Positions 36,013-61,947 of a DNA stretch of 64,000 bases are shown in pieces (the first letter of the stretch is position 1; each line of letters begins with the position of its first letter). The stretch comes from Curvularia clavata (taxonomy: Eukaryota): NCBI GenBank assembly GCA_023920165.1, contig CP089281.1:1054001-1118000 (forward strand), given 5' to 3'. The notes beneath the pieces were generated by a model. That model ran no database searches and was not told the DNA's origin. It was given only the letters and a program-made list of their open reading frames with translations. A program made the position numbers and the translations under genes.

Positions 36013-36534
36013 GATGGAGAGATTATTCAATTAGGGTGCTGTCGCAGTGGAGAGGGGAAGACGAGCGATTCAAGGCCAGGGATTCACGGCGCCTGTACTG
36101 AAAGAGACGAATTGTGGGATGCGATCCAGCTGCGAGCCGAGCGTGCGATTAAAAAAGGCCTGGGGAGCTGGTTTATGAGGTCTGGCCAACCTATGACGTA
36201 GCCGTGGGAGAGTCGGCTCTCTGGCGTCGTCGCTAGCTTCATGACCTCACTAGGTTACAACACTATTAACACGCTTTGCATCATCCCGAGGCACTCAACA
36301 AGGAAAACAGCGTGGGCGGCTTGGATGGAAGCACACTTGCCGACAGCACTGCGTCTTCTGCCGTCGTGGCAGAGGTGTTAGGGTTTGTGTTTCTGAATGC
36401 ACGAAGGAGCTGGGAGGGTCCCTTGCGCGGATAGAAGCGAGATCGCTGCAACCAGTCTGTGCCCGCCCATCGCGCCCTGTCTGGCTGACCTCCACCAAGT
36501 CCTCGACGTCTGAGTGCCTTGCAACCTTATCGCC

Positions 36535-55000: not shown

Positions 55001-55187
55001 TGGAGAGCATAGCTTCGACGTTGTTATGGACCTCACGAGGCGATGTCTTGCCCGTGGCAAAGTAGCTCTGGCCTACATTTCCGGTGCTCGTCCTGGCGAC
55101 AAGCGACTTGGACAGGTTCTCCTTGCGCACATGCTCGTCGTTGGCCCGGCGGTCGATGTATACTACATTACACGCGCCATGATCCAT
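52021..55187 (-). CDS. PDE2: High-affinity class I cAMP phosphodiesterase (PdeH/Pde2), about 6 exons
   Basis: YHNFRHVVDV, AIGHDVGHPGVNN, YNDRSVLESFH, ILATDM, IKCADICNV, QIGFMNIF. Confidence 0.95.
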
Positions 55188-56878
55188 TTTCTCCGCCTAT
55201 GTGCGGCGACCAGCCAGCACTGGTCTCCAGCGCAGAGGGGAGGGTGAAGTAGTGAAGTCGCAAAATGGGGTGTGGAGAGGCGAGCAGGTGGTGGGTCGCA
55301 GTGGGTCAGGAGTGAAGATGTTGGGACAGCGTCACGAACCAAGGGCTGAGGGGGGGTTGGCGGCAGCGTCGTCGTCGTCGTGGCAGCACAGTGGGCGCAG
55401 GAGAGATGCAAGTGATGCAAAAGGCTCTAGCAGCGTGGGGAATTGCAGAAACGAAATGGCGGCAACGCGCTTGTTGGGGCTCGATGCAGTCTGAAACGAC
55501 GACGTCGATGGGAAGCTCCAGGGATGCTAGTGAAGCTGCGAGCGCACACGACACTAGAGACGGCGACTGGTTTACGGCAAGACAAGAGGAAGGCAGGGAC
55601 GAGGCGAGCGACAACGGTGTAGGCGGCGGGCGACGCTGGCGCGGCAGGCGCGATGGCGGGCGGGTGCAGAGGGCGCGCCTGCCTCGATATCGTGGGCGTG
55701 TTGTTCGCTCTTGCCGTCCAGGTGCGGGCGGGACGAGAGGGCTCGCGTGTACTCGGCACAAGGGCGGTGCGGGCGGCGGATGGTGGAGAGCGAGGAGTAG
55801 GGGCAGTGTGAGAAGAAGCGCAGCGGCGTGTAGGTGGAAACGAGGGTGGTGGTCGTGGTCGTGGTGGGCGGTCGTGTGGATGCGACCGTGGTGGTTTGGA
55901 GCGGGCTGGAGAGACGCAGGGGCTTTTGGCTCAGCGTCAGAGTCGCATGCAGCGCACTCGCAGAAGGGGCTGCACTGTGAGCGGCATGGGGGTCGCGGGC
56001 GGATGGTGAGGAGGATGGGCGCAGGCGCAGGCGAGGGCGAGGGCGAGCTTGACGTGGGAGAGAGGGAGATGGGATAGGGTAGGGCTACTCGAGACGGAGC
56101 GAGCAGGGCGCGCCAGCCAGTCTCCACCCGCGCCTTCAGCACTGCACTACACATGTACCGCCGTCTTTCTAGAAGCCTGCCTGTCCGCTCGGAAGCTCCG
56201 CCGCGTCATGCCCCCGGCCAACCCCAATGTTTCAGCCCGAGCAGGCGTTTGTCTGCGTCGGCGCTGCCCTGCGCTGCCCGGCGCTGTCCTGCTATGCCCT
56301 GCCATGCCATGCCTCTCCCCTCTGGCGTCGCTCGCCCTGTGTCGCCCGCCGTTGTTGGCGCCGCCGTCGCCTTGTGCGCCAGCAGAGCCAGGGCGGCCAA
56401 CGGCACGCCCACCAGGGAGCCGCTCGCGCACGCTCGCGCAAGCTTGGCTGCAGGACGGCCCAAGTCCTGAAACGCATCCCCAGTACCCAGTCAGTACCCG
56501 TGGCCTCGTATCGTGTGTGTGTGGGTGCGGCACACACAGCACTCGACATGCTCCTTCTGCCTGCTCCCGCCTAGCCCCCCGCTGGCCCTACTGCTGCTAA
56601 TACCTGCACTGCCTTCTGCTACACTACAGCACCGCGCCCTCGGTCTGACATGTCCACCCCTTCCCGCGCCTCGCCACCACGCCCGTCGTCATCTCCCGCC
56701 AGCATCCCAGCCAGCGAAGCCTTCTGGAAAGTGGCGACTCGTGCGACCACGACAGAGCGCCCTCTGCCATTGTGGGGAGCGACAGACAACCCCCCTGTTC
56801 GGTCCGCTCTGCACGCGAAAGATGCTTGCTGATCAACGACTGCTGATCGCGAGCCTGAGTCGGAGCCCCTCCTAGCCC

Positions 56879-56908
56879 CAGCCATTCAGCCATTCATTCA
56901 GCCATTCA
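56879..56908 (+). repeat. Short tandem repeat (CAGCCATT)x3 with CATT insertion
   Basis: cagccattcagccattcattcagccattca read directly. Confidence 0.7.
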
Positions 56909-57014
56909 ACCCTCGAGCAACGGCCGCCATGGCATTAATTGTCAGGGCGCCTCCGCAATCGCTTTGTCCTCGCATTCATCCGCCCCTGCCCGTGGTTCGT
57001 CTGTACGCATAGTA

Positions 57015-58640
57015 CGCCATGTACGACATGCACTATTACATGGCCCTCGTCTGCCAGCCTTGCCCTCGTCCTTGCCCTCGCCCTCGTCGCCTGGCTAGCG
57101 CATCGCTCTAGCCACTAGGCCGGCATGTGCGCCTGCTCGATGCCGAAGCCTCGGCTTCGCTACACGTAAGCACACGCAGTGAGGTCACTCCACCGCTGCA
57201 CCCAGCGGCAACTACACTAACTCACACACACTAGCCAGGCATAAACCCCCCTCTTCACCTTTTGCCATTCGCCCTCTGCCTCCTAACCCTGTCCGGCATC
57301 TCGCTCTCGCCTTCATGCCACCCTTGCCCGCATCGCTAGCTGGCAAGATAAGACCTTGACAAGGCTGCTGATCTTACTTCTTGGTCAGCTGAAATCCGGG
57401 GTCGACGCCTGCCACACGCTCATCAACTGCATCACACAACCCTCCAAGCTCTCGTCCCGCCTGCTGCGCGACTCAGCCTATCCCCGCGCCAAGCCCACCG
57501 CTCTCACCCTCCAGCCAACAGGACAATTCTCGCCGTGGCGCCCTCATGTCAAATGACGCCCAACTGTGGATTCGCCATAGATTAGTATATTGCTCGACCA
57601 TGCCATTGGGACCACATACCCAATCGTCATGGAACAGACTGCTGGGTCGTGAGTGATGTCGACTGCAATCATTCAGGCAATACGCCCTCTACGTGCTAGT
57701 ACCACGGTCTCGATTCCTCTCCACGTCCACATCTACATCTGCATACACCCCTTTACCACCATCCTCATGCACCTAGACACAACTGATGCCTTGAATTTGC
57801 AATGTGCACACCTCTGCCTGGCATCCGCGTAATCTATGTAGCACGCATGTCAGCAGCCGATGACTTCCTTGTCATCACTCTTTGTAAGCTATTTGGGTGG
57901 CTTGCCTTCATACCATTTGCAGTACCAAATCTCCACATTGGCCGCCTATGATGGACAGACTTTCAAACGTGTAGGCCCAGGATTGAGCCCGGCGTTATGA
58001 CACTAGAAGCACCTGGGATCCAAAGACCCTATTCCCGCGCTCTCTCGTTCTATTGGTATACCTTCAACGATAAAAAAGAAATTTAGAAACAGCAGGGATG
58101 GCAACCTCACGCGCTCAGCTGGGGTCGGGCGTCCTTCCGAGCCCTCTGCACCGGGGTTGTGCACTTTCCACCCCCCAGGGACATGGGAAACAATGTCTTT
58201 GTTAGGGAGGAAAGCCAAAAAAGAAAACACTGGCACCTGTCACTTTTCCCTCGTGCCAAACTTATTCTCTAGTCCCGGCCCTTGACGCTACGTGCCGCAA
58301 CAGCGTTATCGTGAACCTAAATACCCAGCTAGGAAACTGACATGACGCGTTTCGCAAGTCAGTACCCATCTCAGCCCTTTGTCTTCATGTCATGTGTGGG
58401 GACAAGGCACTTGCTCGTTGGCCTGAGAATCATGTTCCAGTAAAGAACCCATGCCGCTGGCTTGAGCACACTGGGCCAAAGTTTGTTGGGGAGGCCTCTG
58501 CTTCCTGTTGAGAGTGAGTAGGATTCTTTCGCCTGTTGAGCTTTATACGACAGTGTTGACCGGTTCGTGTACCCGATGCCCCAGGATACTGTTCTGGTCA
58601 GCATGTCCCAACTCCAAAGACAAATCACGCCCATTTGTAA
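57015..58640 (+). ncRNA. Candidate long structured ncRNA, possibly telomerase RNA
   Basis: No credible ORF. Many stems pair fully only on the + strand through G-U pairs. CCTAACCCT at 57282-57290. Boundaries approximate. Confidence 0.4.
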
Positions 58641-58749
58641 AAGCAAAAAGACGTTATAAACGGGCTGAGCGTTTGGTGATTTCTTATTTCATATCCATCG
58701 GTGTACACTTATCATACAAGCCTCTCAATTAGGCTATCCTACAACGGCT

Positions 58750-61700
58750 TTACACTCCGCCCTGTTTCTCAACCACATGCGCACACCTGCCACAAACATC
58801 CTCCTTTTCTTCCTTGACAAAGCGCCAGCATCGCGGGCACTTTTCTCGGCTTGGAGGATGCACAAGCACTCTTGGTTTTCCAAGCAAAGTACTTACTCCC
58901 CCTTCTTCACTCACGACCACAGCCTCCTCTTCAGCCCACGCCCAGCTTTGCTTCATCTCCTCTGCGTCTTCCGTCACAAAGCCTAGCTGCGAACTCGAGC
59001 TCGAAGACGGAGCATCAGGCACCATGCGAATCCTCACTTCGCTGACTACGAACAAACCCGCCAACTGCTCCTCAATGTCTGTAGCCTGAAGACCAAGCGG
59101 ATGCATGGCCTTTGCAAACGACTCGCTAAAAGCCTCAATACTGTCTGCACCCAGGTAGACAGTCGCCGCGCACTCGAGACTCGATCCAATCTTCTTCTCC
59201 GCGCGAGCCCTCTCCTGAGCAATCTTGATGGCCGCACCTAACGCACCTACAACACCATTCATATGTTCCAGGTTCTTGGATTCCGCCTCAGCAAGCGGCG
59301 GAAGACGCGACCACACAGCCCGGGCAGGATGAATGCTGTTTTGCTTCAAGGCAGCCGGAACATGGTCCCAGACCTCTTCGACGAGCAACGGACACACAGG
59401 CGCCAACATCTGCAATAGCTCATAGAAAACAAGCCCCAGAACACGCTGTAGCGTCTGGCAATCAGACACGTCGCCCGTGTAGACTCTATCTTTAAGCGTT
59501 TCAAAGTAAAAGGCGCTCAGGTCCATGGATATGTACTTGTTGAGCGTGTTGATGGCCTTGAAAAACTCGTACTTTTCAAAGTGGCCGTGGGCTTCGCTGC
59601 TCACCTGCACCAGGCGGTGGACTGCTAGGCGATCGGCCAGGATACCAAAGTCAGCTGTGACAGGGACCAGATGGTTGAAGGATGTAAAGGGCGGTGGGCA
59701 CGAGGGCAGCGAAAAGATGCCCAGAAGCCATTTGAAAGTGACACGGTACTTGTGCAGGGCTTGGTTCACAGACATGAGCAGCGGCTGGCCAATGGTCACG
59801 TCGCGCATGTAGTCGCTGCTTGCAGCCCACAGACGCAGTGCATCGGCGCCCATGGCATCGTACGCTGGTGTGTGCTTTGCAGCTGCGTCTTGTTTGACGC
59901 CCTTTTGCTTCTTGCGCTTGACCGGCGGGAGCAGTTCGCCAGACATGATTTGAAATGGGGAGATGACGTTGCCGAGGGACTTGCTCATCTTGCGGCCCTC
60001 AGAGTCGAGCGTGAAGCCGTGCGTGATGAGCGTCTTGAAAGGTGCTTTGGCCATCCCGGTTGAGTAAGGCTGCGTAGCGACGTGAGTGAGGAGCGAGGAC
60101 TGGAACCAGCCGCGATGTTGATCGGTGCCTTCAAGGTAGACATCAGCTACAGGCTGGTCCTTGTGCTGTGGAAGAAGCGTCCAGCTGGTTCCGCTGTCAA
60201 ACCATACGTCCATGGTATCTCTGCCACGGACATAAGTGCCACTGAGGTGCTTGGGCTTCCAAGCTGGGTCGTCTGGCGCATCTGTCCACCAGGCGTTGAT
60301 GCCACGCTCCTTGATGACTTGAATAATGTGCTCGATGATTTCTGAATCCATGGTCGCTTCTAGTGTATCGCCTTCAACCTTGTACAGAGCAGGGATAGGC
60401 ACACCCCAGGCGCGCTGGCGCGAGATGCACCATTGACTGCGCCCTTGGATGAAGCTCTCCAAACGACTTCGACCGGATTCAGGTTTGAAGTTGACATTGG
60501 CGATTGCCTTCATCGAGGCGTCCTTGATGCCCTCGACGTTTGCGAACCACTGCTCTGTAGCGCGAGTGATGACGGGCTCTTTGGTTCTCCAGTCGATAGG
60601 GTACTTGTGCCGGTAATTCTGCTTCGCACGCAGCATACCTAATTTCTGCAGATAGTTGCACACGGCGTTGCTGCCTGATTTCTTGATATCAGTAACCGGT
60701 AAGCCTTCCAGCAAGTCTGGCTGCTCGGGGAAAGCATCTTTGGTAAAGGTACCAGCATCGTCTACAGGAGCAAAAGCCGGGATGTTCAGTGACATGCAGA
60801 CATTGTAGTCGTCCATGCCGTGACCAGGAGCGAGATGCACTAGGCCTGTACCTGACGAGTCTGTGACAAAGTCTGCGTGTATGATAGGTTGCAGTCCGTC
60901 CGCTTTCTGGAACGGATTTTTATATTGGACTTGATCAGCGATATCCGACCCACGCAGCTCTGATACAACAACCTCCAGCTTGCGCTCGAGAACCTTTTCA
61001 TACTCAGCTACTCGTGACGCGGCAATGAGAATCAGTTCATCGTTGTTTCCAGCATCCTTCACCACGCAATACCGCATATCACGGTGTACCGCAATCGCCT
61101 TGTTCGCAGGTAGAGTCCACGGCGTAGTCGTCCAAATAACAACACTGACCTCCTCGACACCCTTCAGCGCCCCATATCTCAGCGCTTCAGAGAGCCGCAC
61201 CGGATACCGCACAAACGCCGCTAGACTCTTATGCGCCTCATCATACTCGAGCTCCGCCTCCGCAAGCGCTGTCCTCGAACTTGGGCTCCAATACACGGGC
61301 TTGAACTGCCTGTAAATCAACCCTTTTTCAAACATCTTCTTAAACACCTCCAACTGTCTGAGCTCAAATCCGCGCTCCATAGTCTGATACGCATGATCCC
61401 AGTCGCCCATGACCGCCCATTCTTTAAACCCTTTCTTCTGCTCTTCAATCGTCGTCGTAGCCAGTTCCCGCGCCGCCTCACGCACGCTCACAGGATGCGT
61501 TTGCGCTGCATCTTTCTTCTGTGCTTGCAATGCCTTGACTTCAATCGGTAGGCCATGGCAGTCCCAACCAGGTATGTACGACACGGATTTCCCCTGCCCG
61601 ACTTCGAATCTGCATATCACGTCTTTTGTAATCTTGTTCAGCGCATGCCCAATGTGCAGTGGTCCGTTGGCATACGGCGGTCCGTCGTGCAGAGTGAAGC

Positions 61701-61947
61701 TGGGTATGGAGGCTGCATTGTCTTTCCGTAGTGCGCCACCAGCGTCTGTAGACTTGTTCTCTAGAGGATCTGGGTGTCCGCGACATACAACCCGGTCGGG
61801 GCTGCGCTGCCACGCATACAGCTCATCGGTGCATCGGCGCAGGTACTCGCGGTTCGCAGACGCTAGGGGCCGCGGCGGGAAAGGCGATTTTGGGAGCCGC
61901 AGCGTCGAGGACCATGACGCGCGGAGGATGCGAGTCGGGGTTAGCAT
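58750..61947 (-). CDS. ISM1: Isoleucyl-tRNA synthetase, mitochondrial (bacterial-type), single exon
   Basis: LHDGPPYANG, HIGH, PGWDCHGLPIE, WTTTPWT, WCISRQR.WG, EGTDQHRGWF, KMSKS, C-terminal CPRCW..CGRC zinc finger. Confidence 0.97.
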   Translation of the reverse strand: MLTPTRILRASWSSTLRLPKSPFPPRPLASANREYLRRCTDELYAWQRSPDRVVCRGHPDPLENKSTDAGGALRKDNAASIPSFTLHDGPPYANGPLHIGHALNKITKDVICRFEVGQGKSVSYIPGWDCHGLPIEVKALQAQKKDAAQTHPVSVREAARELATTTIEEQKKGFKEWAVMGDWDHAYQTMERGFELRQLEVFKKMFEKGLIYRQFKPVYWSPSSRTALAEAELEYDEAHKSLAAFVRYPVRLSEALRYGALKGVEEVSVVIWTTTPWTLPANKAIAVHRDMRYCVVKDAGNNDELILIAASRVAEYEKVLERKLEVVVSELRGSDIADQVQYKNPFQKADGLQPIIHADFVTDSSGTGLVHLAPGHGMDDYNVCMSLNIPAFAPVDDAGTFTKDAFPEQPDLLEGLPVTDIKKSGSNAVCNYLQKLGMLRAKQNYRHKYPIDWRTKEPVITRATEQWFANVEGIKDASMKAIANVNFKPESGRSRLESFIQGRSQWCISRQRAWGVPIPALYKVEGDTLEATMDSEIIEHIIQVIKERGINAWWTDAPDDPAWKPKHLSGTYVRGRDTMDVWFDSGTSWTLLPQHKDQPVADVYLEGTDQHRGWFQSSLLTHVATQPYSTGMAKAPFKTLITHGFTLDSEGRKMSKSLGNVISPFQIMSGELLPPVKRKKQKGVKQDAAAKHTPAYDAMGADALRLWAASSDYMRDVTIGQPLLMSVNQALHKYRVTFKWLLGIFSLPSCPPPFTSFNHLVPVTADFGILADRLAVHRLVQVSSEAHGHFEKYEFFKAINTLNKYISMDLSAFYFETLKDRVYTGDVSDCQTLQRVLGLVFYELLQMLAPVCPLLVEEVWDHVPAALKQNSIHPARAVWSRLPPLAEAESKNLEHMNGVVGALGAAIKIAQERARAEKKIGSSLECAATVYLGADSIEAFSESFAKAMHPLGLQATDIEEQLAGLFVVSEVRIRMVPDAPSSSSSSQLGFVTEDAEEMKQSWAWAEEEAVVVSEEGGVSTLLGKPRVLVHPPSREKCPRCWRFVKEEKEDVCGRCAHVVEKQGGV

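Follow-up and report, generated by a model that had tools for sequence, protein, structure and literature searches.

The gap at positions 57015-58640 of the window, by which we mean the whole 64,000-nucleotide stretch of DNA analysed here, lies between genes for a cAMP phosphodiesterase (PF00233; PDE2) and an isoleucyl-tRNA synthetase (PF00133; IleRS), both on the minus strand, and most probably, with a likelihood of roughly 70%, gives rise to a spliced long intergenic non-coding RNA (lincRNA), presumably made by Pol II from the PDE2 upstream region and having at most a local, transcription-based effect. The observations behind this reading are spliced contigs across the gap, the lack of a conserved open reading frame, folding at chance level, the absence of about 1 kb from the gap of relatives, and a telomerase RNA (TER)-like locus on contig C1 of the same genome. 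The original prediction had taken the gap for a candidate TER or another long structured RNA. The main value of the present analysis is a correction, since the TER candidate in the gap does not hold and a locus on C1, whose anatomy is described below, is probably the real TER.

The coordinates of all features are collected in Table 1. A PDE exon matched PF00233 with an E-value of 3.7e-46 in a Pfam search, and three PDE2 introns are skipped by contigs within this stretch. The PDE2 mRNA contigs reach 56079 (X1), 56120 (X5) and 56036 (X22), placing the length of the 5' UTR at about 0.9 kb. Blocks of this UTR, for example 55912-55999, are conserved in the related loci L011, L013, L016 and L017. 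Contig depth falls across the adjoining segment up to 57112, which would represent the promoter region. The words TTCnnGAA and CTGATC are repeated there at 56160-56175, 56703-56745 and 56826-56848, and are common to L011 and L013; we take TTCnnGAA in the divergent promoter to be heat-shock-element-like. A second copy of the gap was not found elsewhere in the genome, and the gap is thus not a recent repeat.

Table 1. Features of the PDE2-IleRS interval and of the telomerase RNA-like locus (window positions unless a contig is named).
Feature	Position	Strand	Details
Window	G000:C8:1054001-1118000		Genome of 32.4 Mb in 8 contigs
PDE2-type mRNA, long 5' UTR	55186..56120	-	Coding start near 55185; spliced contigs X1/X5/X22
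Putative divergent promoter region	56121..57112	.	Short conserved blocks 56431-56483, 56703-56848 (blastn, L011 and L013)
Exon 1	57113..57178	+	Contigs begin at 56901, 57159, 57183
Intron 1	57179..57234 (56 nt)	+	GTGAGG ... ACTAAC ... TAG; one X1 contig, 20 letters on the short side
Telomere-like 9-mer	57282..57290	+	CCTAACCCT; chance level, not conserved as template
Conserved non-coding block	57345..57409	+	AAGATAAG, GCTGATC, TCTTGGT(C/A)AGC, C(C/T)GGGGT
Exon 2, bulk	57460..58513	+	Covered by X1 and X5 contigs; lineage-specific
Minus-strand intron	57834..57913	-	GTATGA ... GCTGAC ... TAG; one X5 contig, depth 4.7
Intron 2	58514..58584 (71 nt)	+	GTGAGT ... TTGAC ... CAG; joint in X1 and X5 contigs (two studies)
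Exon 3	58585..58749	+	X1 and X5 contigs run on from 58585 into IleRS
IleRS gene (flanking)	58750..61947	-	ORF; PF00133 E 2.7e-110, PF08264, weak PF06827 match
C1 TER-like locus	L002:4887-3151 = G000:C1:5696386-5694650	-	RF02462 match and surrounding anatomy

Transcription of the gap was followed in assembled Logan contigs from 4 of 24 runs, which carry no strand, ends or level; that X1 and X5 are RNA runs is a guess, though the PDE2 introns are skipped in both. The plus-strand transcript that the original prediction called for is supported by RNA contigs with two GT-AG introns. Because canonical splice signals were observed for each intron on the plus strand, the transcript would, judging from these motifs, be a plus-strand one divergent from PDE2. 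At the end of the conserved block of exon 1 stands GTAAGC (57166), which may be an upstream donor, and the branch site and acceptor of intron 1 are similar in L013. Exon 3 probably overlaps the 3' end of IleRS convergently; the X22 contig of IleRS ends at 58712. Against the lincRNA reading it must be said that intron 1 was seen in a single contig with a short side of 20 letters, that the evidence consists of assembled contigs only, and that the intron on the minus strand shows that some of the cover may be IleRS read-through. That intron hints at antisense or read-through RNA across the gap, with both strands transcribed.

Conservation was assessed in 27 loci, from metagenomes or WGS, that a search with the IleRS C-terminus had retrieved, many of them short or rearranged. 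Blocks within 57113-57409 were matched in three of these loci (L011, L012 and L013; 61-66% identity), and PDE2 coding sequence was detected by tblastn in five of the 27. The full PDE2-IleRS order is retained in L013, while L011 extends to the PDE2 5' UTR and L012 ends just beyond the second block; L017, and L016 as judged from its match to the PDE2 5' UTR, have the gene order without the conserved block. PDE2 and IleRS are neighbours in L013, L017, L018, L019 and L021, with differing gene orders and orientations. Only two blocks inside the gap are shared, namely 57113-57172 (L011 and L013, 83-91% identity) and 57345-57409 (L011, L012 and L013). The second block lies about 1,400 nt from the IleRS stop here, versus 319-446 nt in L011-L013, where blastn found no counterpart of the bulk of exon 2 and where the gap is shorter by about 1 kb. 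Since only these two blocks are shared and about 1 kb is missing in the relatives, the part of the gap with most of the predicted helices is lineage-specific. A 38-nt match of 57794-57831 to L008 and L009 (E 0.005) lies far from IleRS in those loci and was taken as chance.

The statement that the gap holds no real open reading frame proved correct, for none is long or conserved and none of the four tested gap ORFs matches Pfam. With a length above 200 nt, two skipped GT-AG introns and no conserved coding capacity, the transcript also agrees with the prediction of an unannotated plus-strand long non-coding RNA. A small or decayed protein-coding gene would account for the two canonical introns, and L013 has a 77-codon ORF across the putative splice that has short words in common with broken frames in the window; but ATG ORFs on the spliced plus-strand RNA do not exceed 58 codons, no Pfam match was found, indels that break the frame set the window, L011 and L013 apart, and no spliced ORF common to these three was found, so that a coding gene is regarded as very unlikely.

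As predicted, the 9-mer CCTAACCCT resembling a telomere template is present in exon 2. The exact 9-mer occurs in 419 copies genome-wide, telomeres included, versus 340 for its reversed control, and C1 alone has 37 non-terminal copies, in keeping with the caveat attached to the prediction that such a word may arise by chance. Two relatives cover the site (L012 stops short of it), and both are altered, reading CCCAACCCT in L013 and CCCACCCCT in L011; the expected conservation of the template thus failed.

A search of the whole genome with the Ascomycota telomerase model (RF02462, Telomerase_Asco) returned one match, at G000:C1:5695333-5695417 on the minus strand (47.2 bits, E 2e-11), under a stricter filter, to which weak copies can be lost. 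Direct cmscan of the fetched C1 stretch, serving as positive control, recovered the same match with 47.2 bits; direct cmscan of window positions 55500-60000 found no RF02462 match at E<=5, so this check, which had been proposed for the gap itself, came out against it. The model was likewise not found in L011-L013 at E<=2.

The surroundings of the C1 match display a TER-like series of elements. A boundary-like helix closes a few bases 5' of the template-like TAACCCTA (C1 5696386-5696379), a pseudoknot core with candidate core-enclosing pairings lies about 960 nt downstream of this template, and a three-way junction folds as P5/P6/P6.1. The 3' end shows a hairpin, seven consecutive U, AUAAGU (5694688) and a branch site GCUAAC with CAG. 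The order of the elements is that of the Neurospora TER (PMC3592445), and the 3' signals are those of the Aspergillus TER (PMC3603654, PMC4299874), as far as the available portions of these sources describe them; the template of 8 nt and the P6.1 loop of 4 nt, not 5, differ slightly from the described Pezizomycotina TERs. The locus is divergent from a long ORF. On this sequence anatomy, it is probably the true telomerase RNA of the genome.

Within 57015-58640, no hairpin of 4 bp with a NUNGN loop, as expected of P6.1, was found on the plus strand; the only Watson-Crick hairpin of 4 bp with NUNG lies at about 57146, that is 5' of the 9-mer, and no Watson-Crick P6.1 was found 3' of it. A U-run followed by the AUA(A/C)GU cleavage site is absent from both strands of the gap and present once at the C1 locus. 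The caveat of the original prediction that no clear Sm site, 3' cleavage splice site or P6.1 could be recognized therefore holds, as none was found. Moreover, no meaningful similarity was found between the gap and the C1 locus.

The transcript of the gap is like the Pezizomycotina TERs (RF02462; Qi et al., PMC3592445; Kuprys et al., PMC3603654; Kannan et al., PMC4299874), in so far as the consulted parts of these papers characterize them, in its size, its intergenic and non-coding nature and its 5'-proximal stretch complementary to the telomere, but differs from them in having no pseudoknot match, no downstream P6.1, no U-run with AUA(A/C)GU and an unconserved 9-mer; the missing features occur together at G000:C1:5694655-5696386 on the minus strand. 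A telomerase RNA or second TER copy in the gap could still draw on the 1.5-repeat 9-mer near the 5' end of a 1.5-kb plus-strand non-coding transcript, and on the genome-wide filter, by which a weak second copy could be missed. Nevertheless, direct cmscan reported nothing where the same tool scored C1, neither a U-run with RUA(A/C)GU nor a Watson-Crick P6.1 follows the 9-mer, the 9-mer is changed in both relatives, C1 bears no meaningful resemblance to the gap, and the 3' intron (58514-58584) is fully spliced. This reading is left with next to no probability, with the TER-like locus of the species mapping to C1. Among the papers listed by literature searches, none concerned the gap locus.

All five helices that had been given positions, including 57262-57270/58096-58104, pair as described with correct G-U counts, and the named hexamer and pentamer stems are present. 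The claim that the gap is packed with helices did not withstand comparison with shuffled sequence. With pair spans of up to 150 and 20 dinucleotide shuffles per strand, the minimum free energy (MFE) of the whole of 57015-58640 has a z-score of -0.04 on the plus strand and +0.48 on the minus strand; the C1 TER reaches -2.05 versus the plus-strand -0.04, so that the test separates the two modestly. Among 38 sliding windows of 150 nt, the lowest z was -1.64 (plus) and -1.79 (minus). Helices of at least 10 bp with G-U pairs number 4 versus 1.8±1.2 in shuffles, 3 of 30 shuffles being equally high, and those of at least 9 bp at any distance number 78 versus 68±9. Helix counts are a weak test alone, the C1 TER likewise not being enriched over shuffles. 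The long-range helix 57262-57270/58096-58104, proposed to enclose a core, does pair as written, yet it carries no weight because the count of helices of at least 9 bp is within the shuffle range. Closure through G-U pairs, proposed to mark the plus strand, fails to do so, as the minus strand holds more G-U helices. The 5' arm of the helix 58554-58563/58594-58603 coincides with intron 2's branch region and is hence missing from the spliced RNA, and most of the predicted helices fall in the lineage-specific 57460-58513. With the MFE z at -0.04, the word structured in the proposed structured lncRNA is unsupported.

The second conserved block, which is single copy in the genome, can fold into two 7-bp stems, a lower and an upper one, with an internal loop between them. 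When registered by hand, the lower stem is paired at 7 of 7 positions in all four sequences, and the upper stem is intact in three, with one mismatch in L013. The fold z-scores range from -1.03 to +0.37, and RNAalifold chose other lower-stem pairs with a positive covariation term for the four sequences. Rfam returned no match for the block, and scans of the window with cut-offs of E<=5 and E<=10 yielded irrelevant sub-threshold matches only. The hexamer AGAUAA, invariant in the four sequences, fits the H-box pattern ANANNA and adjoins the hairpin.

These features could suggest that 57113-57409 holds a conserved, structured module of RNA, for instance an H/ACA-like element with a single hairpin or a regulatory hairpin, in a host transcript whose 3' part varies freely. 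The block is retained in all three syntenic relatives that match the gap, and the stems and the hexamer are kept as described, but there are four sequences only, two of them nearly alike, the folding is weak, RNAalifold prefers other pairs, the left strand of the pocket is unconserved, no rRNA target is shared, ACG is found in three of four sequences and Rfam has no match; the module is considered unlikely. An equally doubtful extension would make the first two exons (57113-57409) a clade-conserved, splicing-dependent hairpin module flanked by an H-box, divergent from PDE2 and tuning PDE2 or IleRS. As a likeness, the single-hairpin H-box structures 1, 3 and 4 and the H/ACA snoRNAs of Gao et al. 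(PMC8216456) have an ANANNA-type hexamer beside an internal-loop hairpin, as at 57346-57403; compared in these general features, the block differs from them in its narrow distribution, unconserved pocket, lack of a shared rRNA target and weak folding. The words phosphodiesterase and isoleucyl are absent from the main texts of the fungal structured-RNA screens PMC8216456 and PMC5640933.

Two snoRNA classes were considered for the block and rejected. An H/ACA guide RNA has ACG in place of ACA in three of the four sequences and an unconserved left strand of the pocket, and no target was shared in the genome's own SSU and LSU rRNA, the best score of 11 being reached by 4 of 30 shuffled rRNAs. For a C/D snoRNA, inspection revealed no box C, and the sequence preceding CUGA is unconserved.

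In L013 a C-to-A change converts GTCAGC to GTAAGC, a better donor, at the cost of one hairpin pair. Several invariant words presumably resemble GATA-like GATAAG and CreA-like SYGGRG sites. The conserved 5' blocks may best be read as splice donors and promoter-type DNA sites. A reading in which the blocks act solely as DNA, being distal regulatory sites of PDE2 of GATA-like, CreA-like or HSE-like (TTCnnGAA) type, and the RNA amounts to noise of transcription or to read-through from IleRS agrees with the fit of the invariant letters to short factor-site patterns (both CCGGGG and CTGGGG fit SYGGRG), the series of blocks along the PDE2 upstream region, the patchy X22 cover and the existence of the minus-strand intron. 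The splicing of intron 2 on the plus strand in two studies and the similar branch site and acceptor of intron 1 in L013 speak against it, and it is considered quite improbable; it partly overlaps the lincRNA explanation.

According to that preferred lincRNA explanation, the transcript would start near 57.1 kb, at a distance of about 1 kb from the start of PDE2 and in the divergent direction, be spliced twice, and end overlapping the 3' end of IleRS on the opposite strand. It would most likely be the product of the PDE2 upstream regulatory region, and any effect would be local, through chromatin at the PDE2 promoter or the overlap with the IleRS 3' end and not through a folded RNA; it plays no part in telomerase, and its fold is unexceptional. 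For Neurospora, PMC5738166 reports 1478 lincRNAs and 1056 antisense transcripts, conservation being poor for most, and gives 1.6% of the lincRNAs as spliced and 3% as conserved in Sordaria. Like these lincRNAs and natural antisense transcripts of Neurospora crassa, the gap transcript is non-coding, intergenic and largely lineage-specific, with a probable overlap of a neighbour's 3' end; in view of those two percentages, its two introns and short conserved blocks are atypical. They could indicate that a module of functional RNA, or else a small gene in decay, is present. The gap transcript appears to be a lineage-variable, slightly atypical lincRNA of a known kind, and greater weight would be due only if the short block turned out to function through its RNA structure or to regulate cAMP turnover as a switch.

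Two minor observations concern telomere-related sequence. The window holds two telomere-permutation 9-mers, the second of which, AACCCTAAC at 36377-36386 on the minus strand, is expected by chance. Repeats of (CCCTAA)n are present at four sampled contig ends, and the same sequence of about 50 bases was seen outside the telomere repeats at four sampled contig starts (positions 1-52 of L003-L006), probably representing sequencing adapter remaining in the assembly.
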